A stretch of DNA of 64,000 nt from an uncultured Verrucomicrobiota bacterium (GTDB taxonomy: Bacteria > Verrucomicrobiota > Kiritimatiellia > RFP12 > UBA1067). This document shows positions 2,452 to 64,000 of this stretch, one piece after another. The notes below the pieces were generated by a model. It saw only the letters and a program-made list of their open reading frames with translations. It did not search any database and was not told where the DNA came from. Made by a program: the position numbers and the translations under genes. The stretch covers positions 27,642-91,641 of the forward strand of contig CAMAHK010000002.1 of the NCBI GenBank assembly GCA_945834475.1. The letters are read 5' to 3'. The first letter of the stretch is position 1. Each line of letters begins with the position of its first letter.

Positions 2452-3955
2452 GGTCTTGTTCCTTAGGTAAAAATCCGGGTAGCGTGGCCAGGGTGACGAA
2501 AAAGAGCGACAGCACCGCCGGTGACCGCAGGGGACAGTCACTAAAGGCGTGAATAAGCGTGGCCAGCAGGGAAAGAAGGCACATGAAGACCGGAGCCGGC
2601 AGCGCAAAAATCTGAACGGGTTTGGCGGGCGCCCGTTTCTTTTCGGTGAACAGGGCTGTCTTGATCAGTTTCTTCCAGGTCCGGCAGACCGGAATGAGCA
2701 AGAGGACGACAAGGGCCACGACCGCACCAAAACCGACCAAGCCGTGCTCGGTCAGGAACTGGAGATAGTCGTTATGGACATTGGTTCCGCCGTATTGCTG
2801 AAGACCCTTGCGTTCCGCTGGCGTCATTGCCGAAACACAGAAATGCTTGTAACCCCAACCGCCACAACCAAACAGCTTGTGATCCCGCCAAATCTGGGCC
2901 GCAACCCGAGGATGATAATCGCCTTTCCCCGTTACGCGATTTAGGACAACATCCGTATCAAGTGTGTTAATCTCGCGCTGGACGTCCTTCGGCATCGAGG
3001 AAACCGCAAAGAACGCGACAAGACCGACGGCGGCCACGGCAATCGTACCCTTCTTCACCTTGTCCTTTCGAGGCATACGATGCGTGATGTCCAGCAAGGT
3101 ATGGATGAACGCGATGACGAGGATGACGTTGACAAGAATGATTGCCGCGCGCGAAAGCGTACTGATCGCGGCAAAGTACAAGACACCGGCCGGCACAAGC
3201 ATGAGGTGACGATCCCAGAACTGCCGATGGCGATTTCGTGCCGAGGGAGCCTGCGACGTCTTCTGACGGGCGTCAATTTCCAGGTTATGACTACGCCACA
3301 CGGCGACCGCAAGACCGAACAGGAACGTGAAATAATCCCCCGCCATGTTGGGATAGCCGAACGTCGAGAAGAATGTGGACTTGCCAAAGGGAAAGAAAAT
3401 CTTCTGCCACAAAGGACCCTCGGCGTCGGTCGCGATCTGAAGGAAGCCGACAAGTGCGAGGGCAAATCCGTTCCAGACAATCAGCTCCAAGAGCATGCGC
3501 TTGCCGTGTGCCACAAGCGCATGCCGGGTGACAGCCAGACAGGAAAGCGATACGGCGAACCAAAGGAACACGTTATAATGATCCAGACGGTTGACGCAAA
3601 ACGGCAGGAACTTCACTGGGGGCGCCGGACTGATCCCCTGCGCAATCAGCTGACTGTCGCAACCGACGCAAAGGCCGTTGTTTGCAAAGGGAATCGCCAG
3701 CATAAAGACAAGGCCGAGCGACGTCAAGAAGACCGGGTCTTTCTTGAGCGCATGCCAAACGCGTTCGCGCGCCTCGTAGGTCGTTTCGCTCGCACGTTTC
3801 TGGGGAAAGAGAAAGAGAACCTGAGCCAACATCAAAATCATCCAAGGCGCAGCATACGACAAGACGTCCGAACGTGTCCCGCCGAAAAGCCAGCCTAAGG
3901 CGGAGACGACGCCGGCGACGTAGAGAACCGCGAGATTATTGTAGATGAAGGACAT
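2438..3955 (-). CDS. O-antigen ligase (Wzy_C) family polytopic membrane protein
   Basis: Many transmembrane segments plus the [18 protein letters not shown] Wzy_C signature. The ATG at 3953-3955 overlaps the ispG end by about 20 nt. Confidence 0.55.
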
Positions 3956-9750: not shown

Positions 9751-10653
9751 TCAGTTGCCCACCGACTCCCGAGAGTCGGTCGTCGCAAGGCGAGTGTCGA
9801 GAAACGTCTTGATGGCGCTGATACCGTAAATCGCCGCCGTCTCAGCTCGAAGGATCGTCGTGCCGAAGCTGACGGGCGTCGCGATCTCAAGGAGTGCCGA
9901 GAGTTCCTCCGGCGTGAAATCGCCCTCAGGGCCGACGTAGAGAGAAAACCCGTACCGCGAGCCGTCCTCGGCCGCGGCGGGTAAAAGCTCGCCATCGCCG
10001 CGGGCGAGGACGCACACTGCTCTAGCGACTGCCTTCGGCAGCTCGGCTTCGCCTCGGCAGATATGCGGTACGAGGCTCCCCAGCACCGCTCCAATCGTCC
10101 GTGGCGGCGGCATCGTAAGCGCCCCAACAAAGCACTGGGTTTCCCTGACAAGTGCGAGGGATTCGGCGAAGGTCACGGGAGCGAGCACCTCGGGAATCCA
10201 CTTCGCATCCGACTGCCGCGCCGCGTCCTCGGCGATGCGAGTCCAGCGCTCGCGTTTCGCCTCGCGCTCCTTCGCATCAACGCGCACGATCGTCCGGTCG
10301 GAGATGACCGGCACAATACGCGTGACGCCAAGTTCCGTCGCCTTCTCGATCGTCCAGTCCCACCGCGAGCCCTTCGTCACGCAGGCGAAGAGGATGAGAG
10401 AGGGAGGTGGAGGTTGGAGGTGGAGGTCTTCCGATTGCGGCGAGGCAGGAGTGCCTCGCCCCCGAGACACCAATGGGGACGCGACACTCTTGTCGCGTCG
10501 GAATAAGAAAACCCTCCACTTCCCCTTCCCGTCAAAGAGTTCGATCTCCTCGCCGTCCTTGGGGCGCAACACCTTCAGGTGATTCGCCGCCTCTTTGGAA
10601 AGCTGCGGTGCATCGGAAGAAAGTTCGGACGTAGGAACGAGGAGTCGGTGCAT
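9751..10653 (-). CDS. rsmE: 16S rRNA (uracil1498-N3)-methyltransferase
   Basis: PUA-like N-terminus and C-terminal ILRAETAAIYGISA motif. Carries two in-frame repeat insertions and a PPPP microsatellite. Confidence 0.65.
   Translation of the reverse strand: MHRLLVPTSELSSDAPQLSKEAANHLKVLRPKDGEEIELFDGKGKWRVFLFRRDKSVASPLVSRGRGTPASPQSEDLHLQPPPPSLILFACVTKGSRWDWTIEKATELGVTRIVPVISDRTIVRVDAKEREAKRERWTRIAEDAARQSDAKWIPEVLAPVTFAESLALVRETQCFVGALTMPPPRTIGAVLGSLVPHICRGEAELPKAVARAVCVLARGDGELLPAAAEDGSRYGFSLYVGPEGDFTPEELSALLEIATPVSFGTTILRAETAAIYGISAIKTFLDTRLATTDSRESVGN
9950..9988. repeat. Family-B element, in frame in rsmE
   Basis: CCGTACCGCGAGCCGTCCTCGGCCGCGGCGGGTAAAAGC. Confidence 0.7.
10439..10500. repeat. 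Family-C double-hairpin element, in frame in rsmE (plus purine-rich tandem at 10401-10427)
   Basis: GGCGAGGCAGGAGTGCCTCGCC ... GACGCGACACTCTTGTCGCGTC. Confidence 0.75.
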
Positions 10654-12861: not shown

Positions 12862-15171
12862 TCACGGGCGGCAATCCCGAGATTGAAGGCGTTCCGCCAG
12901 TGAGGTGCGGCGTTCGCGGACGGTGTTGGTCTCGATGGCGCGGTCGATGGCGTAGGGCACGCCCATCAACAGGACGAGCTTTTTGCCGCGCGTGATTGCC
13001 GTATAAAGGAGATTGCGCTGGAGCATCACGTAATGCTGCGTGTGGATGAGGACAATTACCGCCGGATACTCGCTGCCCTGCGACTTGTGGATCGTCATCG
13101 CGTAAGCGAGCACCAGTTCGTCCAGATCGCCCGCGTCATACTTGACGGGACGCCCGTCGAAATTGATGATGAGCGAACGGTCGTCGGAGTTGACAGCCTT
13201 TACAAACCCGACGTCACCGTTGAAGACATCCTTGTCGTAATTGTTCCGCAGCTGCATCACGCGGTCCCCGACGCGGAACGCCGTTCCACCGCGGATGATT
13301 GCATCCCCCTGCGGATTGAGCGCCTTCTGAAGCTCGCTGTTGAGATTGTCAGTACCAAGCGTATTGCGGCGCATCGGGGTAAGAACCTGCACATCCTGCA
13401 GCGGATCCATCCCGAACTTGTTCGGAATGCGCGTCGTCATGAACTCGATCGCCCGCCGCAGGCACTGCTGCGGATCCTCGCAGCGCGCGAAATAGAAATC
13501 GGTGTCGTCGCGTCGGATCTCCAGCGGCTCGCCCGCGTTCACATGGTGAGCGTTCTTGACGATGAGGCCCGAGGAGTCTTGCCGGAAAATGAAGTCGAGC
13601 TTCGTCGCCGGCACGACCTTCGACTTGATAAGATCGCCGAGAACCGATCCCGCGCCGACACTCGGGAGCTGATCCGTATCACCCACCCAAACGACGACCG
13701 CCGTGTCGGGCACGGCCTTCAGGAGTTCGCACGCGAGCTTCACGTCAATCATCGACGTCTCATCGAAGATGAAGACGTCCCCTTCCAGCGGATTGTCGGC
13801 GTCGAAAGTGAAGCGGTTCGTGACCGGATTCCATTTCAAGAGCCGGTGAATCGTCTGTGCACCTTGCACCGTACCGCGAGCCGTCCCCGGCCGCGGCGTG
13901 GTAACAGCTCCCTCCCCGAAAATGCTCTCCGTCATCCGCTTCGCCGCGCGGCCTGTCGGCGCAGCCAGGACGACGTTCAGCTTCTTGACGCCTTGATAGA
14001 TCTCGACCAGTGCGCGGATGATCGTCGTCTTGCCAACGCCAGGGCCGCCGGTGATGATCGAGAACTTCGAGTCAAGCGAATTCGCAAGCGCCTCGCGCTG
14101 CCGCTCGGCGAGCTCGAAGCGCTGACGCGACTGCCACCAGGCGATGGCCTTCGCACAGTCGAACGCGGGGAAGGCGCGCGGGGTCGTGAGAATCGCCTTT
14201 ACGCGCGCGGCAACGTCGCGCTCGGAGTAGTAGAGCGAGCGGAGGTAGATCTTTCTCGGTTCCGACGCGACAAGAGTGTCGCGTCCCCGTTGCGTATCAG
14301 CTGGGGGCGAGACACTCTTGTCTCGCCGCTCAGAAGACTCATACACCACTCTTCCCGCCTCGATCTCCGCGGCCAGCGCCTCGCTCAAAATCTCCGTCGG
14401 AATCCCAGTCAACTCGTTCGCATGAAGGAGCAACTCATTCTCGTACGTCCAGCAGTGTCCGCCGTCCTCGCTCTCGGTCTCGAGCGTGTACGAGATCGAT
14501 GCGCGGGCCCTGAGTGGCGAGTCTTTTGGAATCCCGACCGAGAGCGCGATCTTGTCGGCCGTCGCGAAGCCGATGCCCCAGATGTCGCGGCAGAGGCGGT
14601 ATGGATCCTGCTTGACGATCGCGACGGCGTCGGGACCGTACTTGCGCACGATCTTCGTCATCTTCGTAATCGAGATTCCGTAGGTCTGCCCGAAGATCAT
14701 GTTCTCGCGCATCGTCTCGTTCGCGTGCCACGACTCGCGGATCTGACGGATCTTCGCCGCACCGAGCTTCGGCACTTCGGAGAGGCGTCCCGACTGATGC
14801 GAGAGAACGTGCATTGTCTCCTCGCCGAACGTGTCGACGATGCGCTTCGCGAGCACGGGACCGATGCCCTTGATGAGTCCGGAGGCGAGATACTTCTCGA
14901 TCCCCTTCAGCGACCGCGGTGCGACGCAGGTCAGCGTCTCGGCCTTGAACTGGCGGCCGTGCACCTTGTCCGTCACCCACAGTCCCTCGGCCTTGATCTC
15001 CTCGCCCTCCCACACGGCCTGCGTCTTGCCGACGACCGTGATCTCGGGATTGCGCGCGAGTTCGAATTCGCTCGGAATTTCGACATGCAGAACCGTATAC
15101 CCGTTCGCGTCGTTGTGAAAGACGACGGATTTGATGGTGCCTTCGACGATCTCGCGCTCCGACTCGCTCAT
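12862..15171 (-). CDS. recD2: RecD2-like SF1 ATP-dependent DNA helicase
   Basis: GGPGVGKTT Walker A, helicase motifs and C-terminal HKSQGSEY. Contains one in-frame double-hairpin repeat. Confidence 0.8.
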   Translation of the reverse strand: MSESEREIVEGTIKSVVFHNDANGYTVLHVEIPSEFELARNPEITVVGKTQAVWEGEEIKAEGLWVTDKVHGRQFKAETLTCVAPRSLKGIEKYLASGLIKGIGPVLAKRIVDTFGEETMHVLSHQSGRLSEVPKLGAAKIRQIRESWHANETMRENMIFGQTYGISITKMTKIVRKYGPDAVAIVKQDPYRLCRDIWGIGFATADKIALSVGIPKDSPLRARASISYTLETESEDGGHCWTYENELLLHANELTGIPTEILSEALAAEIEAGRVVYESSERRDKSVSPPADTQRGRDTLVASEPRKIYLRSLYYSERDVAARVKAILTTPRAFPAFDCAKAIAWWQSRQRFELAERQREALANSLDSKFSIITGGPGVGKTTIIRALVEIYQGVKKLNVVLAAPTGRAAKRMTESIFGEGAVTTPRPGTARGTVQGAQTIHRLLKWNPVTNRFTFDADNPLEGDVFIFDETSMIDVKLACELLKAVPDTAVVVWVGDTDQLPSVGAGSVLGDLIKSKVVPATKLDFIFRQDSSGLIVKNAHHVNAGEPLEIRRDDTDFYFARCEDPQQCLRRAIEFMTTRIPNKFGMDPLQDVQVLTPMRRNTLGTDNLNSELQKALNPQGDAIIRGGTAFRVGDRVMQLRNNYDKDVFNGDVGFVKAVNSDDRSLIINFDGRPVKYDAGDLDELVLAYAMTIHKSQGSEYPAVIVLIHTQHYVMLQRNLLYTAITRGKKLVLLMGVPYAIDRAIETNTVRERRTSLAERLQSRDCRP
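14264..14327. repeat. Family-C double-hairpin element, in frame in recD2
   Basis: GACGCGACAAGAGTGTCGCGTC ... GGCGAGACACTCTTGTCTCGCC. Confidence 0.75.
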
Positions 15172-15890
15172 GGCGCGGCGAATTCGAGGCGCTTATGGGT
15201 GAACGGATGCGTGAAGACGAGCTTCACGGAGCGCAGGTAAAGGCGATCGGCCTTCTTGCCGCCGTATTTGACGTCACCGACAACCGGGTGGCCCGCCTCG
15301 GAGAAATGGACGCGGATCTGATTCTTGCGTCCCGACTTGAGCGCGACTTCGACGGTGGTTGTTTTCTGTTGCGGCGAGGCAAGAGTGCCTCGCCCCCGTT
15401 GCGGAGCTCCCTCATTCGGGGGCGAGACACTCTTGTCTCGCCGCAAGGAAATCTTCCTCCATTCCGTCCGCGCCAGTTTTCCGCCCTTCGCGACCGACCT
15501 GACGCGGTACCCGTCGGCGTCTTCCTGAAGATAGCTTTCAAAGACGCCTTCATCCGCCTCAATCACGCCCTCGACCGTCGCGACGTAGGTCTTCTCCGTG
15601 AGCTCATTCCAGCGGTCGCGAATCGCATCTGCCAGGCGCTCGTCCTTCGCGAACAACATCACGCCGCTCGTCTCGCGGTCGAGACGGTGCACAAGAGAGA
15701 CATGCTTCGAACTGCGGGCCTGTCCCTTGCGGACGTAGGCGTTAAGGAAGTTTTCAGCCGTCGGCTGCGCCTCGCGCGCGGCGCGTCCGATCAGCCGCGT
15801 GTTGGTCGTGAGAAGCCCCGCGGGCTTGTCGATCACAATGATGTCGCGATCTTCGTAAAGGATCTCAAAGGGAAGGAACTTGTTGCGCAT
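15168..15890 (-). CDS. RluA-family pseudouridine synthase
   Basis: HRLDRETSGVMLFAK catalytic motif. Its stop overlaps the recD2 start (ATGA). Contains an in-frame double-hairpin repeat. Confidence 0.75.
   Translation of the reverse strand: MRNKFLPFEILYEDRDIIVIDKPAGLLTTNTRLIGRAAREAQPTAENFLNAYVRKGQARSSKHVSLVHRLDRETSGVMLFAKDERLADAIRDRWNELTEKTYVATVEGVIEADEGVFESYLQEDADGYRVRSVAKGGKLARTEWRKISLRRDKSVSPPNEGAPQRGRGTLASPQQKTTTVEVALKSGRKNQIRVHFSEAGHPVVGDVKYGGKKADRLYLRSVKLVFTHPFTHKRLEFAAP
15373..15442. repeat. Family-C double-hairpin element, in frame in the rluA-family gene
   Basis: GGCGAGGCAAGAGTGCCTCGCC CCCG...CGGG GGCGAGACACTCTTGTCTCGCC. Confidence 0.75.
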
Positions 15891-15938: not shown

Positions 15939-17138
15939 TCAGGTGAGCATTTTGGCGATGCGCTCGGCGGCGATTTTGATCTTCTCGAGGGAGGTCGCGT
16001 ACGACATGCGCACGAAACCCGCGCCGCATGTGCCGAAAGCCGAGCCCGGCACGACGGCGACGCCGTAGTCCTTCAGGAGCTTCATCGCAAAATCCTCGTC
16101 GCTCATTCCCGTCGAACGGATGTCGCAGAAGATGTAGAACGCGCCCTTCGGCATCACGGTCTTGAGCCCCATCGCATTCAATGCCGGCACGAGGAAGTCG
16201 CGGCGCTTCTGATATTCACGACGCATCCGCTCGACGTCCGTGTCGCCGAAGTCCATTGCCTCGACACCGGCGGCCTGCGCAAGCGTCGGGGCGGACATGA
16301 TGCCGTACTGATGGATCTTCATCATCGCGTCGATGACGTCCGCCGGCCCACAGGCGTAGCCGAGACGGTACCCCGTCATCGCCCAGCTCTTCGAGAAGCC
16401 GTTGAGGAGAATGACGCGGTCACGATGTTCCGGGAAGGCGGAGAAGCTGGGGAGAAAATGCTGTTCATCGCCGCGGCCGAGGACGGCTCGCGGTACGGTA
16501 TAGTTCAGCTCGCTATAGACCTCATCGGCCAGGATCAGGAGATCATGCCGCTCCGCAAAGGCGAGAATCTCGGCCATGTCGGCGCGGCTCAAGACGGCAC
16601 CTGTCGGATTGCACGGAAAGTTGAGGAGCATCGCCTTCGTCTTCGGCGTCACCTTCGCCTCGAGCGCGGCGACCGTCAGGCGGAACTCATCCTCAGCCCG
16701 CGTCTCGACGCAAACCGGTACGGCGTGCGCCAGCCGGATCGTCGGCGCATAGGAGACAAAGCACGGCTCATGGTAGAGGATCTCGTCACCTGGCGAGCAG
16801 ATCGCTCGGATCGCGAGGTCGATCGCCTCCGAGACACCCACCGTGACGAGCACTTCCTTCGTCCAGTCGAAGGACGAGCCAAAGCGCCGCGTCAGATAGC
16901 GGCAGATCGCCTGACGCAGATCGGGTGTGCCGAGGTTGGACGTGTAATGCGTACCGCCATTCTCCAGGCACGTCACCGCTGCACGCGAAATGTGCCAAGG
17001 CGTGTCGAAGTCCGGTTCGCCGACACCAAGCGACACCGTATCCTTCGACTGCGCAACGATGTCGAAGAACTTGCGAATGCCACTCTTCGGCAGTTCGGCC
17101 ACATGCGGCGCAACGCGCGATCTCTTCTCCATTGCCAT
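15939..17138 (-). CDS. Class I/II PLP-dependent aminotransferase (aspartate aminotransferase-like)
   Basis: SKSWAMTGYRLGY lysine motif. Contains an in-frame repeat. Confidence 0.75.
   Translation of the reverse strand: MAMEKRSRVAPHVAELPKSGIRKFFDIVAQSKDTVSLGVGEPDFDTPWHISRAAVTCLENGGTHYTSNLGTPDLRQAICRYLTRRFGSSFDWTKEVLVTVGVSEAIDLAIRAICSPGDEILYHEPCFVSYAPTIRLAHAVPVCVETRAEDEFRLTVAALEAKVTPKTKAMLLNFPCNPTGAVLSRADMAEILAFAERHDLLILADEVYSELNYTVPRAVLGRGDEQHFLPSFSAFPEHRDRVILLNGFSKSWAMTGYRLGYACGPADVIDAMMKIHQYGIMSAPTLAQAAGVEAMDFGDTDVERMRREYQKRRDFLVPALNAMGLKTVMPKGAFYIFCDIRSTGMSDEDFAMKLLKDYGVAVVPGSAFGTCGAGFVRMSYATSLEKIKIAAERIAKMLT
16469..16498. repeat. Family-B element, in frame in the aminotransferase gene
   Basis: CGCCGCGGCCGAGGACGGCTCGCGGTACGG. 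Confidence 0.7.
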
Positions 17139-30563: not shown

Positions 30564-30791
30564 ATGGGCGACGGTTTTACAAGTTTCGTCTGTGACAAGT
30601 GTCACACCGAAATCGAAGCGTCACTTGACCTCATCGGTCAAGTGACGGAGTGCCCGGCCTGCGGCGCCAAGCTGACGATCCCCGACAACCAGTCGGACGG
30701 CATCGCGCGCTACGCCGCCGGCGAGGCCGACCCCGACCATCTTCAGGCCATGAAGAGCCGGACGATCCGAATCGACCTGGGCGACTTCTGA
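30564..30791 (+). CDS. Small zinc-ribbon protein (75 aa)
   Basis: CDKC...CPAC pair. Sits three nt after the nagB stop. Confidence 0.45.
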   Translation: MGDGFTSFVCDKCHTEIEASLDLIGQVTECPACGAKLTIPDNQSDGIARYAAGEADPDHLQAMKSRTIRIDLGDF

Positions 30792-30793
30792 CA

Positions 30794-30833
30794 CCGTACC
30801 GCGAGCCGTCCTCGGCCGCGGCGGGTAAAAGCC
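30794..30833. repeat. Family-B element filling the zinc-ribbon/nuclease intergenic spacer
   Basis: CCGTACCGCGAGCCGTCCTCGGCCGCGGCGGGTAAAAGCC then AAAATG. Near-identical to the rsmE copy, including the GGGTAAAAGC tail. Confidence 0.7.
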
Positions 30834-37333: not shown

Positions 37334-40300
37334 CTACATTTCCCACGGCTTCGGTTCGCGCGGCGCGAGGCTCACGCGTTCATCGGGACGGAACGAAAGG
37401 TCCGTCTGCGGCACGATCTTCTCGAACTCGGAAAGGAACGAGAGTGTCGGATTGAGACGGAAACCCGGTCCCAGATCCACATCAAGGATGCGTCCGTTCG
37501 GATAGTGAAGCTCGACGAGCACCGGGAAGTTTCCGGGACTGCGCAGGATCGAATCGCGCACCGCGTTCACCTTCGCCTTAATCTCCGGATCTTCATACCG
37601 CATCTTGAAGCGCAAGCCCTTCGAGATGAGCGGCAACGCCGTCGCGAGCGGATAGACCTCCTTCGCACTGAACGAAAGATCGCCGAGTTGCGGATTGAGC
37701 TTCTGCGGATCGTCGTTCGCATAGGTCGTGCGATAGGTGACCTCGCCGCAGACAACGACCAGCTGCTCGAGCTCGTGCTCGATCGTCCCCTGCTCGCCGT
37801 TGAACTGCTTCCACGGCTTGCCGAAGCACATCGCCTCGCCGAATCCCGTGCCGTCGTCAAGCCCGAGAATCGCCCACTTCTCGCCAACGGACCCGTCGGG
37901 ACGCGGCTTCGGGATCTTGATCGAACACGAGGCGAGCTGCGCGATGACGCGCACCTCAAGTCGCTTCAAGAGGAACGGACTCAGCTCTTTCTTCTCAAAA
38001 CGCTTCTTGAGCTTCGCCTTCTCGGCATTGACCGCCTTATCGAACGCGACCTTGTCGCTCCATGAAACCTCGCCCTTTGCCCGGACGATGTTCCGTGCCA
38101 GCCCCTTGAGCTGCCACTCGTCGTCCTTGCCCTTCATCAGCATCTCTTCAATCGGCGACAACTTCACCGCCGCCTCGGCCTCCGATGCGTCTTCGTCTTC
38201 GGAATCGCCACCTCCACCTTCGACCTCAACCTCTTCCTCTCCACCTTCGACCTCAACCTCTTCCTCTTCCTCTTTCTTCTTCGCGATCATGTCGAGGGTG
38301 AACGGCAGGGTTTCGATCGTATCTTCCTTCGCGCCCGGGGCACGGGTACGGATTACGGCGATGGAACCTTCGGCGATCAGCTTGCGACAAGGCGAGAGCG
38401 GATTGCCCGAGATGTACACGCCACAGAGATCACGCTCGTTCTTGAGGTCCTCGGCCGGCGAGAACGGCGGGGTGTCGACGAGTTCCGCGTCGGAATACGT
38501 CTCCTTGCCGCCGTCCGCAAGCATGTCAAAGAAGTTCGCCTGAACGCTCGCATTCTCCTTCGCGCGTCCCTGCGCCTTCTTGAGCGCGAACTCGATGTTG
38601 TTGTAAAGTTTCGCACGGTTCGGTTCGATCGTCGAGAACGCGCCGACGCGCGTCAGGTTTTCGAGGACGCGCTTGTTGACGACATTCGAACCCGCGAGGC
38701 GCATGCAGAAGTCGAGGAATCCCGTGTACGGACCGTTCGCCTCGCGCTCCGCGACAATCGCCTCGGCCGCCGCGCTACCGACGCCCTTGATACCGCCAAG
38801 ACCGTAGCGGATGCCCTTCGCGTCCGGCGTCGGCACGAAGCGTGCGCCGGACTCGTTGACGTCCGGAAGCTTCAGCTCGAGGTTAATCGCCTGCGCTTCC
38901 GCGACGAAGCCGGGGAGCTTGTCGAAGTTGCCGATTTCGGACGAGATCTGCGCGCACATGAACTCGGCCGGATAGTGCGCCTTCAGGTAGCCGGTCTGGT
39001 ACGCGACCCACGCGTAGCAGACGGAGTGGGACTTGTTGAACGCGTATGAGGCGAACGCCTCCCAGTCCTTCCAGATCTTCTCGATGAGGGCCGTCGCCTT
39101 CCCTTCGTCCGTCAGTTCGCCGATGCGGAACTTCGGATTCGCGAGACACCCCTTGATGAACTTCGCCTTCAGCTCGGCCATGATGTCCATGAGCTTCTTG
39201 CCCATGGCCTTGCGGAGCTTGTCCGACTCGCCGCGCGTGAACCCCGCGAGGTCACGCGAGAGCAACATCACCTGTTCCTGATAGACCGTGATGCCGTACG
39301 TATCCTTGAGACGGCTCTCCATCTCGGGATGGTCGTAGACGACGGGCTTCCGTCCCTGCTTGCGATCAATGAAGTCGGGGATGTACGCCATCGGGCCCGG
39401 ACGGTACAGGGCGTTCATGGCGACGAGGTCCGTGAGCTTTTCCGGCTGCAGCGCCATGAGGTACTTCTTCATGCCCGCTGATTCGAACTGGAAGAGTCCC
39501 GTCGTCTCGCCACGGCCGAAGAGCTCGTACGTCTCAACGTCGTCGTCCGGAATGTTGTCGGGATTGAGGAACCCGTCCGGTCCGCGCAGGAATTCGGGAA
39601 CGCGCGGATTGTCCTTGCCGAGCAGCGCGACGCACTCCTTCTCGACCGAGAGCGTCTTGAGTCCTAGGAAGTCCATCTTGAGGAGGCCGACCGGTTCCAC
39701 GAAGTGGCCGTCGTACTGCGTCGTCAGGAGCTTCTCCTGCTTAGGCACCCCTTCACCTTCGCCCTTCACCTTCTTCCCCGCCCCGCCTTTTTCCGGCGTC
39801 GGCATCACGGGAAGCGTCTCCGCGATCGGATCGCGCGAGATGATGACACCGCAGGCATGCACGCCCGGCTGACGGATGCAGCCCTCGAGGCGTCCCGCAC
39901 GTTCCATCAGCTTGTGGACGACGGGATCGTCGGAGTTGAACGCGGCGTCAAGATCAGGGGACGCCGCGCGGGCCTTTTTGAAGTTGATCTTCGGGACTTC
40001 CGGGACGTACGAGGCGAGCTTGTTCGTCGCGGCGAGCGGATAGTCCATCACGCGGCCGACATCCTTGATCGCCGACTTCGCGGCCATCTGTCCGAACGTC
40101 ACGATATGCGCGACGTGGTCGGCGCCGTACTGACGCGTCACATAATCAAGCACGCGTTCGCGTCCCGCATCGTCGAAGTCGACATCGATATCCGGCATCG
40201 AGATTCGGTCGGGATTCAGGAATCGCTCGAACAGGAGGTCGTACTTAATCGGATCGACGTTCGTGATCCAAAGCGCATACGCGACAGCCGAGCCCGCAGC

Positions 40301-41638
40301 GGAGCCACGTCCGGGACCAACCCACACGCCACACTCCTCGCGTGCCGCTCGGATGTAGTCGCGCACGATGAGGAAGTACCCAGGAAAGCCCATCAGCTTG
40401 ATCGTATCAAGCTCGAACTGAACACGCTCGCGGATCGCCTCGGGGATGACAATCTCCTCTTCCCCTTGACCTTCCCCCTTGACCTTCTTCTCTCCCCACC
40501 TGACTTTCGCGCCCTCCCAGACGAGATGCTCGAGATAGTCCGCCTCGAACTTGATGCGGAGCACCTTCTCGTAGCCGCCGAGACGGTCGAAGTTGTTCGG
40601 CTTCTGGACGTTAAACTCCTGTTTCAGCTTCTCCTCATCGAAGGTCTTCGCATAACCCTCTTCCGTGCCAAACTCGACTGGAATCGCGAACTTCGGCATG
40701 ATCGGCGGCGAGTCGAGCTCGTATTCCTCGACACGGTCGGCGACTTCCTTTGTGTTCGTGATGAGCTCGGGATTCTCCGCGAAGAGCGCGCGCATCTCCT
40801 CTTCGGTCTTCAGGTACTCCTGTCCCGTGTAGACCATGCGCTTGGCATCCGTCATCTTGCGTCCCGTCGAAAGCGCGAGGAGAACGTCGTGCGAGTCGTC
40901 ATCTTCGGCATTGAGGAAGTGGACGTCATTCGTCGCGATGACGCGGATGTCGAGCTTCTTACCGAGTTCGAGCATCGCCTTGACGACCTTGACCTGACGG
41001 TCGTAAAGGTCGATAAAATCCTTCTGCACCATCGCGACGCCTTCGGGCGGCATCGCGTCGACCGTCTTCTGCGCCTTGTGGAGCATGACCTCGAGCGAGT
41101 AGTTCTCGCCGAAGAGGTCCTTGTACCACTTCGCGACGCGCTCGGCCTCGGCCATGTTCCCGGTGTCGATCGCGTGCGCGACCTCGCCCGCAATGCACGC
41201 CGAGGAGACGTGCAGACCCTCGTGATACTTCTCGAGGAGCTTGTGGTCGATTCGCGGACGCGTGTAGAAGCCGTTGATGTGGGCTTCGGACATGATCCTC
41301 ACGAGGTTATGATAGCCCGTGAGGTTCATCGCGTGCAGGCAGAGGTGATGACGGTACTCGTTCTTGTCGCGAGAGAGCATGTCGCCCGTCGAAGTCACGT
41401 ACGCCTCGCAGCCGAGGATCGGCTTCACATGAACGCCCGCGAGATCGCCGTACGTCTTCTCCTTCTTCGACCGGCACTCGTCGTAGAAGCACTTGAGCGC
41501 GAAGAGATTGCCGTGGTCGGTGACCGCAAGAGCTGGCATGCCAAGCTTGCGCGCCTTCTTGATGAGCGGCACGATCTGGCACTGTCCGTCCAGAAGCGAA
41601 TAGGTCGTATGAAGATGAAGATGGACGAAATCAGACAT
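37334..41638 (-). CDS. dnaE: DNA polymerase III alpha subunit
   Basis: PHP N-terminus HLHLHTTYSLLDG, palm, fingers and OB domains. Carries three in-frame low-complexity tandem insertions. Confidence 0.9.
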   Translation of the reverse strand: MSDFVHLHLHTTYSLLDGQCQIVPLIKKARKLGMPALAVTDHGNLFALKCFYDECRSKKEKTYGDLAGVHVKPILGCEAYVTSTGDMLSRDKNEYRHHLCLHAMNLTGYHNLVRIMSEAHINGFYTRPRIDHKLLEKYHEGLHVSSACIAGEVAHAIDTGNMAEAERVAKWYKDLFGENYSLEVMLHKAQKTVDAMPPEGVAMVQKDFIDLYDRQVKVVKAMLELGKKLDIRVIATNDVHFLNAEDDDSHDVLLALSTGRKMTDAKRMVYTGQEYLKTEEEMRALFAENPELITNTKEVADRVEEYELDSPPIMPKFAIPVEFGTEEGYAKTFDEEKLKQEFNVQKPNNFDRLGGYEKVLRIKFEADYLEHLVWEGAKVRWGEKKVKGEGQGEEEIVIPEAIRERVQFELDTIKLMGFPGYFLIVRDYIRAAREECGVWVGPGRGSAAGSAVAYALWITNVDPIKYDLLFERFLNPDRISMPDIDVDFDDAGRERVLDYVTRQYGADHVAHIVTFGQMAAKSAIKDVGRVMDYPLAATNKLASYVPEVPKINFKKARAASPDLDAAFNSDDPVVHKLMERAGRLEGCIRQPGVHACGVIISRDPIAETLPVMPTPEKGGAGKKVKGEGEGVPKQEKLLTTQYDGHFVEPVGLLKMDFLGLKTLSVEKECVALLGKDNPRVPEFLRGPDGFLNPDNIPDDDVETYELFGRGETTGLFQFESAGMKKYLMALQPEKLTDLVAMNALYRPGPMAYIPDFIDRKQGRKPVVYDHPEMESRLKDTYGITVYQEQVMLLSRDLAGFTRGESDKLRKAMGKKLMDIMAELKAKFIKGCLANPKFRIGELTDEGKATALIEKIWKDWEAFASYAFNKSHSVCYAWVAYQTGYLKAHYPAEFMCAQISSEIGNFDKLPGFVAEAQAINLELKLPDVNESGARFVPTPDAKGIRYGLGGIKGVGSAAAEAIVAEREANGPYTGFLDFCMRLAGSNVVNKRVLENLTRVGAFSTIEPNRAKLYNNIEFALKKAQGRAKENASVQANFFDMLADGGKETYSDAELVDTPPFSPAEDLKNERDLCGVYISGNPLSPCRKLIAEGSIAVIRTRAPGAKEDTIETLPFTLDMIAKKKEEEEEVEVEGGEEEVEVEGGGGDSEDEDASEAEAAVKLSPIEEMLMKGKDDEWQLKGLARNIVRAKGEVSWSDKVAFDKAVNAEKAKLKKRFEKKELSPFLLKRLEVRVIAQLASCSIKIPKPRPDGSVGEKWAILGLDDGTGFGEAMCFGKPWKQFNGEQGTIEHELEQLVVVCGEVTYRTTYANDDPQKLNPQLGDLSFSAKEVYPLATALPLISKGLRFKMRYEDPEIKAKVNAVRDSILRSPGNFPVLVELHYPNGRILDVDLGPGFRLNPTLSFLSEFEKIVPQTDLSFRPDERVSLAPREPKPWEM
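38213..38270. repeat. 27-bp tandem duplication encoding an acidic (E/V/G) tract in frame in dnaE
   Basis: Unit CTCCACCTTCGACCTCAACCTCTTCCT occurs twice. The minus-strand translation is EEEVEVEGGEEEVEVEGG. Confidence 0.65.
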
Positions 41639-48117: not shown

Positions 48118-49347
48118 CTAGCAGAAGACCCGTTCAACGCGATTGCCGAGCGAACAGATGATATCGTAGGCGTGGGTGCCCTTCAGGGCCGCCCAGTCGT
48201 CGGGCGTGATCGAGTCGTTTCCACAGGCGCCGAAGCAGATGACCTCGTCACCGGGCTTCACGTTCGGGACGTCCGTGACGTCGACGGTCGTGTAGTCCAT
48301 CGAGATGCGTCCGACGATCTTGCAGCGCTTGCCGCCGATGAAGACAAAGCCGCGGTTCGTGAGCGCGAGGGGGAGTCCGTCGGCATAGCCCGCCGAAATC
48401 GTCGCGATCGTGCGCGGCTCGGCAAGACACCACGTGCGGCCGTAGCCGAGCGTCGTTCCGGCGGGAAGCTCGCGCACCTGCGCGACGTGCGTCTTCAGCG
48501 TGAGGACGGGCTCCACCTTGAGCGCCTTGCGTCCGTAAGGGTCGAAGGATCCGTGCAGGTTGATGCCCGTGCGCACCTGCGTGAACGGCGCCTTCGCTGT
48601 TTCGGGGAAATTGTTGATCGCGTCCGAGGCCGCCATGTGGACCTTCTTGAAGGAGATGCCCTCCTTCGCACACGCGGCGACGAGCGCCTTGAAGAGCTTG
48701 ATCTGCGTCTTCGTGTACGGGTCCTTCGGCTCGTAGGCCATCGGACAGTGCGAGAAGATGCCTTCGCAGTCGAGGTTCGGAAGCGCGCGCACGGCGCGAA
48801 TCGTCGCGAGGGCCTCGGCAAGGCCCGTCGGTCCCGTCGCGCGGATGCCGAGGCGTCCCATGCCCGAGTCGATCTTGAAATGGACGCGCGCCGTCGTCTT
48901 CGCCCTCACGGCCGCAGCGGAGATCAGCTTCGCGGTCTCGAGGTCGGTGATCGGCAGGATCACGCCCGCCCGAACCATCTCGGGAATCTCGTCGGGGAGG
49001 ATTGAGGAGAGGATTTGGATGGAGGGGATTTGGATGGAGGGGATGTTCTGTTCTGGCGCGACAGGAGTGTCGCGCCCCCTTTGAGCCGTCGCACGCAACG
49101 GGGACGCGACACTCCTGTCGCGTCGTACGAAAACCTTCCTCAACTCCAACGCCTCGTACGGTTCGGCGACGCCGAAGTCGGTGCAGCCCGCCTCGGCGAG
49201 GGCCTTCGCATACGCGGAAACCCCGAGCCCGTAGGCATTCGCCTTTAAAACCGACAAGACCTTCATCGGCGCGACATGCGCGGCGATCTTGCGATAGTTC
49301 CGCACCAGGGCCTGAAGGTCGATTTCAACAGTAACGCGCCTCTTCAC
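48118..49347 (-). CDS. alr: Alanine racemase
   Basis: PLP lysine region VLKANAYGLG. Probable GTG start. Contains a double-hairpin repeat and a 15-bp tandem duplication in frame. Confidence 0.8.
   Translation of the reverse strand: MKRRVTVEIDLQALVRNYRKIAAHVAPMKVLSVLKANAYGLGVSAYAKALAEAGCTDFGVAEPYEALELRKVFVRRDRSVASPLRATAQRGRDTPVAPEQNIPSIQIPSIQILSSILPDEIPEMVRAGVILPITDLETAKLISAAAVRAKTTARVHFKIDSGMGRLGIRATGPTGLAEALATIRAVRALPNLDCEGIFSHCPMAYEPKDPYTKTQIKLFKALVAACAKEGISFKKVHMAASDAINNFPETAKAPFTQVRTGINLHGSFDPYGRKALKVEPVLTLKTHVAQVRELPAGTTLGYGRTWCLAEPRTIATISAGYADGLPLALTNRGFVFIGGKRCKIVGRISMDYTTVDVTDVPNVKPGDEVICFGACGNDSITPDDWAALKGTHAYDIICSLGNRVERVFC
49055..49124. repeat. Family-C double-hairpin element, in frame in alr (15-bp tandem duplication at 49011-49040)
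   Basis: GGCGCGACAGGAGTGTCGCGCC ... GACGCGACACTCCTGTCGCGTC. Confidence 0.75.
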
Positions 49348-55073: not shown

Positions 55074-56420
55074 CTATGCCTTTGAGAGAATGACGAGGGT
55101 CTCGAAGCGTGCTGTTCGCGGGAACATGTTGAACCAGCGCACGGATTCGACCTTATAGCCCTTCGAAATTTCCTTCAAATCGCGCATAAGCGTCGCCGGA
55201 TCGCACGAAACATAGAAGATTCGCGGAGCTTTGGACTGAGCCAGCCAACGCGCGACACCGGGTTCGAGTCCCCCGCGGGGCGGATCAATGACAACGGTCG
55301 TCTTCGGCGTCACCGAGATGCGCTTCAGGTTCCGCCCGACTTCCTCGGCGTAGAAGCGGAACGATGAGGTGGAGGTGGAAGGTTGAGGTGGACAGCGGAA
55401 GATGGCTTCCGCGTTGCGCCGGGCGAAGTCGATTGCCGCACGCCCCGACTCGATGCCGGTGAGGCGCCCTCCGTACCGCGAGCCGTCCTCGGCCGCGGCG
55501 CTGGCACAGCACAGCCCGAACACGCCGACGCCGCAATAGAGGTCGAGAATATCCGGCGCGACAGCCGCGCCCTTCTGGTATTCGGCGACGACCGCCCGGA
55601 CGAGTTCTTCTCCAACCTCGGGATTGACCTGATAGAAGCCGTCGGCCGGCACCTCAAAATCGCGGCCAAGCGTCGTTTCCTTGAGAACAAGGCCCTGCGG
55701 CGCCTTGCCGAGCCACCACTTGACACCCGTCTTCTTCGTCCATCGAATCGTGACGTTCGCCTTCTTCTCCGTCTCGCGACGCACAACCTCCGGACCTGTC
55801 GTCAGCAGCATCAGAATCTGCCGCCGGATCTCAGGCAACTTCGCGTTGATCTCAGGACGCGCCAGAGGATCTGACGCGATGTCGACGATCTCATGCGAGG
55901 GCTCGGTACGATAGCCGATGACGAACGGGGACGCGACACTCCTGTCGCGTCGGGAATCGGAAGAAGCGTCCTTATTCCGGCGAGGCAAGAGTGCCTCGCC
56001 CCCGATTCTCCCGATGTGATAAACGACCTTGTTCCGGTAGTTAAGCTCCATCCCAGCCGACGTACCCGCGCCGCCTCGGCACGAGGCGCTCACCCAGCCG
56101 CTGTCACCCATCCCCACCGAAATCCGCGCCCGCTCGAAGAACTCACGCAGCTGCTGCTCCTTGGCCGCACACTCGCCCTTGTAGGAGAGCGAGGCATAGA
56201 CCATGCCGGGGACAGACCCCTCTTCCTTCACGCGTTCGGGACTCGGCTCGACGATTTCGACGAGCCGGGCCTTGACGAAGCTCTTCTTCTCTTCGACGAT
56301 TTCGGCGCGGACTTGTTCGCCGGCCCAGGCGCCGGGCACGAACACGACGCGCCCGTCGCCCAGACGGCCAAGTCCGTCGCCGCCATAGACGTTCTTTGCG
56401 ATGTAGACCGTCGAGATCAC
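55074..56420 (-). CDS. rlmD: TRAM-domain SAM-dependent RNA (uracil-5)-methyltransferase, RlmD/TrmA family
   Basis: Motifs VIDPPRGGL and FYVSCDPATL. GTG start overlaps the upstream stop. Carries three separate in-frame repeat insertions. Confidence 0.7.
   Translation of the reverse strand: MISTVYIAKNVYGGDGLGRLGDGRVVFVPGAWAGEQVRAEIVEEKKSFVKARLVEIVEPSPERVKEEGSVPGMVYASLSYKGECAAKEQQLREFFERARISVGMGDSGWVSASCRGGAGTSAGMELNYRNKVVYHIGRIGGEALLPRRNKDASSDSRRDRSVASPFVIGYRTEPSHEIVDIASDPLARPEINAKLPEIRRQILMLLTTGPEVVRRETEKKANVTIRWTKKTGVKWWLGKAPQGLVLKETTLGRDFEVPADGFYQVNPEVGEELVRAVVAEYQKGAAVAPDILDLYCGVGVFGLCCASAAAEDGSRYGGRLTGIESGRAAIDFARRNAEAIFRCPPQPSTSTSSFRFYAEEVGRNLKRISVTPKTTVVIDPPRGGLEPGVARWLAQSKAPRIFYVSCDPATLMRDLKEISKGYKVESVRWFNMFPRTARFETLVILSKA
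55471..55500. repeat. Family-B element, in frame in rlmD
   Basis: CCGTACCGCGAGCCGTCCTCGGCCGCGGCG. Confidence 0.7.
55930..56000. repeat. Family-C double-hairpin element, in frame in rlmD
   Basis: GACGCGACACTCCTGTCGCGTC ... GGCGAGGCAAGAGTGCCTCGCC. Confidence 0.75.
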
Positions 56421-62256: not shown

Positions 62257-64000
62257 ATGTTTTTACGCAAGACATCACGATTCAAGGACGGCAAGGTCCA
62301 TGACTACTGGAGCGTCGCGGAGAACTCGCGTGCGGGGCGTCGCGTCGTCCAGCGGCAGCTTCTCTATCTCGGCGAGATAGACGAGGACCGGCAGAACGCC
62401 TGGCTCAACGCGATCAGCGAGCTCGACGAGCGCAAGGAGGTCGACGAACGAGGCTACCTGATTCCGCCTCCTCCGCCGGAGCCTCCGCGCGAGACGAAGA
62501 ACCCCATCCGAATCCGCCTGAGCCAGATGAAGGTCGAGAACATCCGCGAATGTGGCGCGTGCTGGCTCGGGCTCCACCTGTGGGATCTCGTCGGGCTGGA
62601 CTCGTTCTGGACAGGCAGGCTCCCGCCCAGCTCGCACGGCACGGACTGGCTCGCGATCTTCAAGGCCATCGTCCTCTACCGCCTGACGTCGCCGGGCAGC
62701 GAGTGGAGGATGCACCGCGACTGGTACGACGACACCGCCGTGCGAGACCTGCTCGGCGAGTCGTCCTACACGTCGAAGTCGACGCTCTACGGCTGCCTCG
62801 ACCGGCTCGTGACGCACAAGGACGCGATGTTCGGGTTCCTCCGCGCCCGCTGGGCGGGGCTCTTCTCCTCGAACTGCCGCGTCATCCTCTACGACCTGAC
62901 GAGCACGTACTTCGAGGTGGACGGGACGAAGGCCGAGACGTCCGAGCTTTTGCGCCACGGCTACAGCCGGGACAAGCGCGGCGACTGCCTGCAGGTCGTG
63001 ATCGCGCTCGTGATGACTCCGGACGGGCTGCCCCTAGCCTACGAGGTCATGCCCGGCAACACGTCGGACAAGGGCACGCAGATGCAGTTCGTCGACAGGC
63101 TCGTGAAGAAGTACGGCAAGGACGGCAAGCTCGACAGCCTCTGGCTCATGGACCGCGGCGTCCCGACGGAGGAGACGCTGGAGAAGATGCGCTCGCTCGG
63201 CTTCAAGTACCTCGTCGGATCCCCGCGCAGCACGGTCGGCGCGCTCGGCGAGAAGCTGTCGGGACAGGAGTGGACGCATGTGCAGGACGGCATCCGCGTG
63301 AAGTATGCGGCGGACGGGACGGACAAGTACGTCCTGACGCACAGCATGGCCCGCTTCACGAAGGAACACGCGATGCGCCAGTCGAAGATGCGCGCGGTGA
63401 TGAAGGTCCTCCATTCGATAGACGTGCGCATCGGAAGGCGCGTCGAAGTCGGAGACGACGGCAGGCCAGTCGAGAAGGAACGCAAGGCGCTTTCACGGGA
63501 CGAGCTCATCTCGCGACTTGCGGTGGCGAGGTCGAAGGCCGGACGCGCCTGGCGACTGTTCAGGATCCGCAAGCCGAAGCCGAAGGACACGACGGTCACG
63601 CAGGAGAACTTCTCGTGGTCGTTCGACCTCGAGGGGATCAAGGAGGCCCGGAGCAACGAGGGGACGTACCTGCTGCGCACGAACATGACCGAGGCCGATC
63701 CGGCGGTACTCTGGAAGCAGTACATGATCCAGGGCGAGATCGAGCAGTCGTTCAAGGAGGTGAAGAACGACCTCGGACTGAGGCCCATCTACCATCAGCT
63801 CGACAGTCGCATCGAGGCGCACATCTTCGTCAGCTACGTCGCCTACTGCCTTCAGGCGACGCTGAAGAACCTGACCCGGAGCAAGGCGAGCGGACTGACA
63901 CCCCGGCAGATCTTCGACAAGATGAGGAAGATCTATATGGTCGACGTGAAGATACCGACCACGGACGGCCGCGAGATCGTGATGCAGCGCTACGGCGAGC
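62257..64000 (+). mobile_element. IS1634-family (IS4 superfamily) transposase ORF, truncated by the window edge
   Basis: N-terminus MFLRKTSRFKDGKVHDYWSVAE...LLYLG and DDE region YLLRTNMTEADPAVLWKQYMIQGEIEQSFKEVKNDLGLRPIYHQL...EAHIFVSYVAYCL. The frame is open from 62257 to the end. A TGAGATAAT box lies 6 nt before the ATG. Confidence 0.75.

Follow-up and report, generated by a model that had tools for sequence, protein, structure and literature searches.

A probably REP-like family of short palindromic repeats lies in frame inside the genes of an uncultured Kiritimatiellia bacterium

Short palindromic repeats of the REP (repetitive extragenic palindromic) type are built of 8-9 bp stems closed by 4-5-nt loops, and are found mainly as head-to-head dimers, including heterodimers, with alternative complementary residues in their stems (PMC3733652). 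REP dimers inside known genes encode 20-30 residues, and such intragenic REPs are most numerous in Opitutus terrae, of the PVC (Planctomycetes-Verrucomicrobia-Chlamydiae) super-phylum, and in Rickettsia conorii, with hosts that include helicases, polymerases and pseudouridine synthases (PMC3733652). The Rickettsia palindromic elements (RPEs) are the classic in-frame palindromic inserts (PMC10969869). Here we describe a repeat of comparable form, family C, in a 64,000-nt stretch of the genome of an uncultured Verrucomicrobiota bacterium (assembly GCA_945834475.1, contig CAMAHK010000002.1, positions 27,642 to 91,641), called the window below. The window is a piece of gene-dense bacterial chromosome, about 91% coding and with three tRNAs, whose exact proteins were found on a 91.8-kb NCBI contig and in metagenome assemblies from the pig gut; samples with this species include ERZ13405076, ERZ11448883 and ERZ28436069. 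Six family-C loci are known in this strain, five (c1 to c5) in the window and one (c6) beyond its left edge. We put the probability that they are REP-like (BIME/REPIN-like) short palindromic repeats, intragenic and mobile by way of their hairpin, at roughly 0.6. Family C is a new family within a known kind of in-frame selfish hairpin DNA, that of Opitutus and Rickettsia.

An earlier reading of the letters without database searches (the sequence-only reading) had described five two-armed copies. All five were located where it had placed them, except that copy 1 ends at 10499 and not at 10500. Scanning the 64-kb window with a degenerate arm pattern gave ten perfect arms without mismatches, in five pairs, against an expectation of 0.39 +/- 0.57 from 100 shuffles. 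The identical ten arms came out of a blind scan for perfect hairpins, all with stems of 9 bp and loops of 4 nt, which bears out the claim that the arms are perfect hairpins. In a consensus scan the window held no arm with 1-5 mismatches, compared with ten at zero, and hence no decayed copies. Each palindromic arm is 22 nt long; two more lie in the adjoining 9 kb, and all 12 arms of the window strain (window plus c6) are perfect. Throughout the window the loop is AGAG or GGAG, read as CTCT or CTCC on the other strand. Of the loop lengths of 4-5 nt first reported, only the shorter therefore stands, the 5-nt loop CTCTT being a mis-parse since its last T pairs with A9.

The arms are flanked by TT[GC]C on one side in 7/12 cases and by CCC(G) on the other in 12/12. 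The dimers that they form measure 69-79 nt, with spacers that share no sequence. Arm-to-arm gaps in c1 to c5 are 17, 20, 26, 26 and 27 nt, so that the spacers are variable as first described, within a narrower span than the 10-35 nt then given. Counting c6, five dimers are head-to-head and one (c5) is tail-to-tail; the description of the arms as inverted copies of one another holds, but in copy 5 their order is the opposite one. The two arms of a pair are drawn from different stem variants, so that most pairs are heterodimers. This mixing, together with the unrelated spacers, indicates that the single arm and not the pair is the repeating unit, which is about 30 nt long and consists of TT[GC]C, a 9-bp stem, a 4-nt RGAG loop, the second stem half and CCC(G). 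As both flanks and spacers are unrelated between copies, these are dispersed repeats, and segmental duplication is ruled out.

Four stem variants occur, GGCGAGGCA, GGCGAGACA, GGCGCGACA and GACGCGACA. Stem positions 2, 5 and 7 distinguish them, with a change of the partner base each time, and the four form a chain linked by single, fully compensated pair changes; position 1 is invariably G-C and position 2 is G-C or A-T. In an alignment of 16 distinct arms, taken from the window and its relatives, 99.3% of cells are paired and three of the nine stem pairs vary on both sides (GC<->AU, AU<->CG and AU<->GC), although these three represent few independent events that were copied afterwards. None of 500 shuffles matched the observed pairing or covariation score, and slid registers fell to 27-58% paired, confirming that the stem differences are compensated. 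The further claim that local hairpins are preserved in every copy is true of the window strain but not of its relatives. At stem position 2 the orthologous c3 arms of other strains show G.T or A.C without compensation, and the recombinant arms of the alanine racemase tandem arrays contain mismatches. The covariation is thus the mark of source copies that needed an intact hairpin, and not of selection on the individual loci: a hairpin is perfect at the time of copying and is no longer policed once inserted. Selection on structure, as first proposed, would accordingly apply at the copying step, without continuing selection on each inserted copy. Compared with its host gene for a slower rate of change, the 78-nt c3 element shows 0/78 changes in lineage L060, 5/78 in L064 and 5/78 in L061 (which is otherwise 98-99% identical), a pattern that is inconsistent between lineages and looks like a recombination mosaic, and from which we make no claim of constraint.

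All six dimers are intragenic. Their hosts are strong Pfam matches and the domain matches run across the inserts, so that copies which had been treated as generic or intergenic DNA each lie in a real gene and are read in frame. The inserts add 23-26 residues to the host proteins with the frame kept, SVSPPNEGAPQR being an example of an element-encoded peptide. The arms are free of stop codons in all six frames, and 26 of the 30 frames across whole window dimers are open. One codon phase is used by nine of the ten window arms (10/12 with c6), giving the peptides RRDKSVSPP and RGRGTLASP, where the alternative frames would give ARQECLAP and GEALLPRR. The spacing between head-to-head arms (39, 42, 48 and 48 nt; 43 nt in c6) is divisible by three in four of five pairs. 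We read the phase bias as purifying selection at the peptide level against Cys-containing or more hydrophobic frames, and a spacing divisible by three makes slippage between arms harmless. The bias and the spacing together indicate that the elements are translated and not removed. Splicing or bypass of the element is ruled out, since inserts that were removed before translation would have no need to be frame-preserving, stop-free and phase-biased.

Comparison with orthologues identifies the dimers as insertions. Where the RluA protein of the window has the c3 insert, orthologues of 215-218 aa show a short native loop, and the RecD2 proteins of L065 and L067, although 87-89% identical to that of the window, are without the 23-codon insert; no arms were found in about 16 kb from each of these two relatives. 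In the AlphaFold model of RluA (mean pLDDT 69), residues 150-173 are modelled as coil with pLDDT <50 between strands 138-146 and 177-184, and the insert is accordingly predicted to be a floppy, hydrophilic, disordered surface loop of about 25 aa. The RluA and RecD2 genes are themselves adjacent, the start of RecD2 overlapping the stop of RluA (ATGA). Other inserts are present in a different loop of the RluA orthologues from other species P0025, P0028-P0030, P0032, P0038, P0050 and P0095 (alignment A1, columns ~150-195): one is a family-C-like homodimer and the others are GQTP-type repeats.

The number of arms at a locus also changes on a short time-scale. At c3 a third arm is present in lineage L060, and across samples the alanine racemase gene has 2, 3 or 5 arms, arranged in tandem units of 48 nt, in alleles whose identity is at least 99%, so that strains of at least 99% identity differ by 16-48 residues in this enzyme. 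Self-complementarity of each arm makes arm 1 and arm 2 of a pair direct repeats of one another, and recombination between them gives rise to the 48-nt arrays.

Table 1. Family-C dimers and their host genes, followed by other repeats and genes of the region (window positions, unless another sequence is named).
Feature	Position	Strand	Description	In-frame peptide
c1 dimer	10435..10503		head-to-head heterodimer; arms 10439-10460 (GGCGAGGCA-GGAG-TGCCTCGCC) and 10478-10499 (GACGCGACA-CTCT-TGTCGCGTC); flanks TTGC...GGAA	FRRDKSVASPLVSRGRGTPASPQ
c1 host	9751..10653	-	RsmE-type 16S rRNA methyltransferase (PF04452 + PUA_4); Pfam match split by insert	
c2 dimer	14260..14331		head-to-head heterodimer; arms 14264-14285 (GACGCGACA-AGAG-) and 14306-14327 (GGCGAGACA-CTCT-); 23-codon insert relative to RecD2 orthologues	ERRDKSVSPPADTQRGRDTLVAS
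c2 host	12862..15171	-	RecD2-type helicase, 769 aa vs 726-730 aa in relatives	
c3 dimer	15369..15446		head-to-head heterodimer, 78 nt (26 codons), TTGC to GCAA; arms 15373-15394 (GGCGAGGCA-AGAG-) and 15421-15442 (GGCGAGACA-CTCT-)	LRRDKSVSPPNEGAPQRGRGTLASPQ
c3 host	15168..15890	-	RluA-family pseudouridine synthase, 240 aa vs 215-218 aa in empty-site orthologues	
c4 dimer	49051..49128		head-to-head heterodimer; arms 49055-49076 (GGCGCGACA-GGAG-) and 49103-49124 (GACGCGACA-CTCC-)	VRRDRSVASPLRATAQRGRDTPVAPE
c4 host	48118..49347	-	alanine racemase; Ala_racemase_N match covers 258 residues for 217 profile positions	
c5 dimer	55926..56004		tail-to-tail heterodimer; arms 55930-55951 (GACGCGACA-CTCC-) and 55979-56000 (GGCGAGGCA-AGAG-); one arm in different codon phase	GGEALLPRR...SRRDRSVASP
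c5 host	55074..56420	-	TRAM + tRNA/rRNA (uracil-5) methyltransferase, RlmD/TrmA-like	
c6 dimer	L070:17777-17841		beyond the window's left edge, inside CoaB (DFP) gene	
Family-C-like homodimer	L074:1870-1950		in a different loop of RluA	
GTAC-family sites	5847, 6892, 15903, 27094, 27136, 27180, 28819, 37174, 45035, 45079, 58750		about 30 nt each	
Further GTAC-family sites	9950-9988, 13869-13907, 16471-16499, 30794-30832, 55471-55509			
93-nt insertion	16459 (site without the insertion); L001:5778-5869		GTAC-type hairpin	
Aminotransferase gene	15939..17138	-	gene with the site of the 93-nt insertion	
48-nt segment	~10016-10063		in RsmE gene, within GTAC-type repeat	
70-nt stretch	L070:15022-15091		in glycosyltransferase gene outside the window	
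GGAGGT-type tandem repeats	10403-10427, 49006-49044, 38208-38274, 39749-39773, 40459-40487, 55367-55392		in genes; CT-rich on coding strand	
DDE transposase gene	~62257-64000	+	IS4-type (PF01609), runs past the window's right end	
DDE gene and island	L072:2375-4222		DDE gene followed by lower-GC island	
12-bp hairpin	30619-30647		perfect; CGTCACTTGACC-TCATC-GGTCAAGTGACG	
75-codon open reading frame	30564-30791	+	holds the 12-bp hairpin	
Hairpin pair of L030	L030:2713-2732 and 2769-2788		another stem (GGTCGCGC...GCGCGACC)	

Among the closest described systems are the intragenic REPs of Opitutus terrae and other bacteria (Di Nocera, De Gregorio & Rocco 2013), with which family C shares GC-rich stem-loops, the size of stem and loop, head-to-head dimers, heterodimers, complementary subfamilies and variable spacers, as well as the presence of dimers in known genes and a helicase and a pseudouridine synthase among the hosts. 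Opitutus terrae belongs to the PVC group, as the present bacterium probably does. However, published REPs carry a GTAG or CGTC tag and are mostly extragenic, whereas family C ends in TT[GC]C and CCC(G) and its six known copies are all intragenic. Measured against the GTAG super-family, which is RAYT-associated (RAYT, REP-associated tyrosine transposase), family C is likewise a short (20-40 bp), GC-rich, dispersed stem-loop forming dimers with complementary stem subfamilies, but the tag (GYAG/GTRG) is present in 0/12 arms and the location is intragenic in 6/6 loci. Measured against the CGTC super-family, to which RPE-4 and RPE-6 belong, the 8-9 bp stem and 4-5 nt loop agree, but stem positions 1 and 2 are not both A-T and the tag (TGTC/CCTC) is missing: the unpaired end is CGGG/CCCG, and the one place where CGTC appears is the stem of the GACGCG variant, in which its bases are paired.

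The REPIN and BIME elements of Pseudomonas and E. coli, which are mobilised by RAYT, resemble family C in having two inverted units that can fold separately or as one long hairpin, and in being non-autonomous, multicopy and hairpin-dependent. REPINs, however, are extragenic and spread as doublets whose spacer is conserved, in contrast to the unrelated spacers, mixed partners and single-arm unit of family C. RPE-1 and its relatives are likewise palindromic selfish DNA placed in frame in unrelated housekeeping genes, where it is translated and the surface of the protein tolerates it (PMC10969869, PMC3733652), and the in-frame, fold-compatible mode of insertion is common to both. They differ in sequence and size, RPEs being AT-rich elements of about 100-150 bp with a conserved peptide, limited to Rickettsia and relatives, where family C has 69-79 nt and unrelated spacers. 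In the IS200/IS605-derived palindrome-associated transposable elements (PATEs) and their transposase TnpA, the hairpin as a would-be recognition feature and a tetranucleotide beside it (TT[GC]C in 7/12 family-C arms) are points of likeness, but PATEs have distinct, imperfect left and right hairpins and a conserved interior, unlike family C, and no TnpA was found in the sequence examined. None of the elements matches Rfam 15, in which only three tRNAs of the window reach the gathering score.

The window also contains a second and commoner hairpin family, of the form GTAC-CGCGG(T)GCG-loop-CGC(C)CGCGG, with a GTAG-like tag as in canonical REPs. Nine of its 12 pattern matches are intragenic and encode AAAEDGSRYG or TPRPGTARGT according to frame. 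The presence of this second, GTAC-tagged and mostly intragenic REP-like family strengthens the REP reading of the genome. A 93-nt (31-codon) in-frame insertion with a GTAC-type hairpin in an aminotransferase gene is present in L001, L004 and L061 and absent from the window, L002 and L003; as these strains are 98-100% identical, the gene has gained or lost it recently. Within a GTAC-type repeat of the RsmE gene, a 48-nt in-frame segment is absent in L061, and the 70-nt stretch that holds it is found again, at 100% identity, beyond the window in the gene for a glycosyltransferase. The segment probably represents a third mobile family.

If family C is REP-like, the likeliest route of its spread would be recognition of the hairpin in single-stranded DNA by an HUH transposase of the RAYT/IS200-IS605 type whose gene lies elsewhere in the genome. 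The hairpin would then be the feature needed for copying, which would explain the perfect stems and the compensated variants, and only source elements with intact stems would yield offspring, giving rise to subfamilies with alternative complementary stems. An inserted copy would drift by uncompensated point changes, while its dimer would grow or shrink by slippage or unequal recombination between the arms as direct repeats. Dimers may persist in genes because they keep the reading frame, have arms that are stop-free in six frames and encode a loop that appears to be hydrophilic and disordered.

Several observations weigh against this interpretation. A cognate transposase of the IS200/IS605 type, which the sequence-only reading had envisaged, was found neither in the window nor in the annotated flanking contigs: across about 81 kb (window plus Pfam-annotated flanking contigs) there is no Y1/HUH (PF01797-type) transposase gene, and the sole transposase nearby is encoded at the window's right end, by a DDE (PF01609) gene. 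No empty-site allele close enough to define element boundaries or a target duplication was found, so that no transposition event of family C was seen. The strain polymorphisms of family C are slippage-type amplifications of arms and not new insertions. Its intragenic location may also carry little information, since at 91% coding density random insertion would place six of six copies in genes with a probability of 0.91^6 = 0.57, and only six loci are available. Lastly, the GTAG and CGTC tags, which are the marks of both described REP super-families, are missing. A more specialised variant of the REP-like reading would make family C an element adapted to open reading frames, inserted or surviving there preferentially, with a preference for one codon phase and for spacings divisible by three, acting as a standing source of length variation in the surface loops of essential enzymes and mobilised by an enzyme other than a canonical, GTAG-recognising RAYT; we consider this unlikely.

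[quoted passage not shown] A mobile, non-autonomous element is still the best reading, but the resemblance to MITEs ends there, as there is no conserved core, spacers are unrelated and stem variants are mixed. In its full form the MITE explanation would take each pair for the two terminal inverted repeats left from a deleted insertion sequence of the DDE type, moved in trans by the transposase of that insertion sequence and generating a target-site duplication. Such an origin is consistent with arms that are inverted repeats around a short variable interior, with the DDE gene at the right end of the window and with the four flanking bases of c3, which form an inverted pair (TTGC...GCAA). However, MITEs have a conserved interior and terminal inverted repeats in common with a parent insertion sequence, whereas in family C every arm is a perfect palindrome in its own right, partners belong to different stem variants and no sequence is common to the interiors. 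One pair is tail-to-tail and one locus has three arms in a row. No direct repeat, such as a target-site duplication would leave, is visible beside any of c1 to c5, where the closest empty-site orthologues are diverged (72-78% DNA identity) and do not allow boundaries to be fixed, and no family-C arm or arm-like sequence lies near the DDE gene. The MITE explanation is thus improbable. The DDE gene is of the IS4 type, and in L072 an island of lower GC content comes after it, which encodes a TnsA-like protein and an N6/N4 DNA methyltransferase.

A second alternative is that the repeats are selected structures in mRNA (targets of RNase III or another nuclease, pause sites or stabilisers) and that a function in RNA is the source of the covariation. 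Every copy is transcribed within a gene, and the RNA folds are far more stable than those of shuffled sequence (z = -3.7 to -8.2). The local hairpins are not the minimum-energy structure everywhere: for copies 3 and 4, and for copy 2 as RNA, the lowest-energy fold is one long hairpin of arm 1 on arm 2, with RNA energies of -64.2 kcal/mol for c3 and -57 kcal/mol for c4. The loops of c3 have changed together, being AGAG/CTCT in the window and GGAG/CTCC in L064, with L061 as a one-sided intermediate (alignment A4), which hints at a constraint on, or conversion of, the long arm-on-arm hairpin and not of the local hairpins alone. This co-change and the GGAA/TTCC loops of L074, both of which leave the long hairpin paired, would suit an RNA structure. 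Yet the hosts are unrelated housekeeping genes with no common regulation, and orthologues in close relatives are without the elements, which are thus not needed for gene function. Moreover, one covarying pair (A-T<->C-G) has no wobble intermediate, the intermediates on the mRNA strand include A.C besides G.U, no Rfam match was obtained and the number of arms varies freely between strains. We give this possibility little credence.

The perfection of the stems could also be a matter of mechanical upkeep, in which a mutation in one stem half is copied to the other by mismatch repair in an extruded hairpin or cruciform, or by intrastrand template switching. Self-templated correction would give a compensated pair in one step, A-T to C-G included, and would fit both the chain of single 'double' steps that joins the stem variants and the 12/12 perfect arms of the window strain, none of which is partly decayed. 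However, uncompensated states persist in orthologous and recombinant arms, so that such correction must be inefficient, and the presence of identical arms in unrelated genes is left unexplained. Upkeep of this kind, which seems quite unlikely as the main cause, could only supplement a mobile-element explanation. That the arms are a peptide module selected at the protein level, such as an RS/RG-rich linker or phosphorylation motif, is highly improbable: 10/12 arms do share a codon phase (RRDKSVSPP or RGRGTLASP) and 4/5 head-to-head pairs have a spacing divisible by three, but identity is at the nucleotide level, synonymous positions included, other phases are used in c5, c6, L030 and L074, the insert is predicted to be disordered and is missing from functional orthologues, and the bias is more simply attributed to selection against the ARQECLAP and GEALLPRR frames together with harmless slippage.

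Beyond the window strain, a family-C dimer is present in an ABC-F-like gene of the rumen Lentisphaerae metagenome-assembled genome RUG572 (L030); one of its two arms is identical, and the stem of the other differs yet is still complementary. The family-C-like homodimer of L074, which lies in a different RluA loop, has loops (GGAA/TTCC) that are complementary between its arms. When a relaxed arm pattern was run against a genome collection, which evidently does not include the source genome, L030 was the one true relative to emerge, beside 43 single matches that arose by chance in unrelated GC-rich genomes, and a metagenome scan with the dimer pattern returned only ordinary long hairpins and no family members. 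Searching for other decorated proteins with a doubled peptide profile gave nothing at E <= 10. Since these large scans revealed no further members, family C is confined to this lineage in the available data. L030 also carries a hairpin pair with another stem, which suggests that its genome has further repeat families of its own.

Other repeats of the window are of a different kind. Short tandem repeats of the GGAGGT type lie in genes at six places, two of them only 11-12 nt from dimers c1 and c4, and the number of units beside c4 (IPSIQ) differs among alanine racemase alleles. The perfect 12-bp hairpin listed in Table 1 is unrelated to the repeat families.

Inserts of this type inflate protein lengths, split domain matches and can pass for structured RNAs or novel domains. 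Family C extends the intragenic REP-type repeats to a new family, found in the PVC group and marked by a new tag, and offers a system for asking what mobilises untagged and CGTC-type REPs. It provides a clean case, from an uncultured gut bacterium, of selfish hairpin DNA that resides inside essential genes and alters their proteins on short time-scales.

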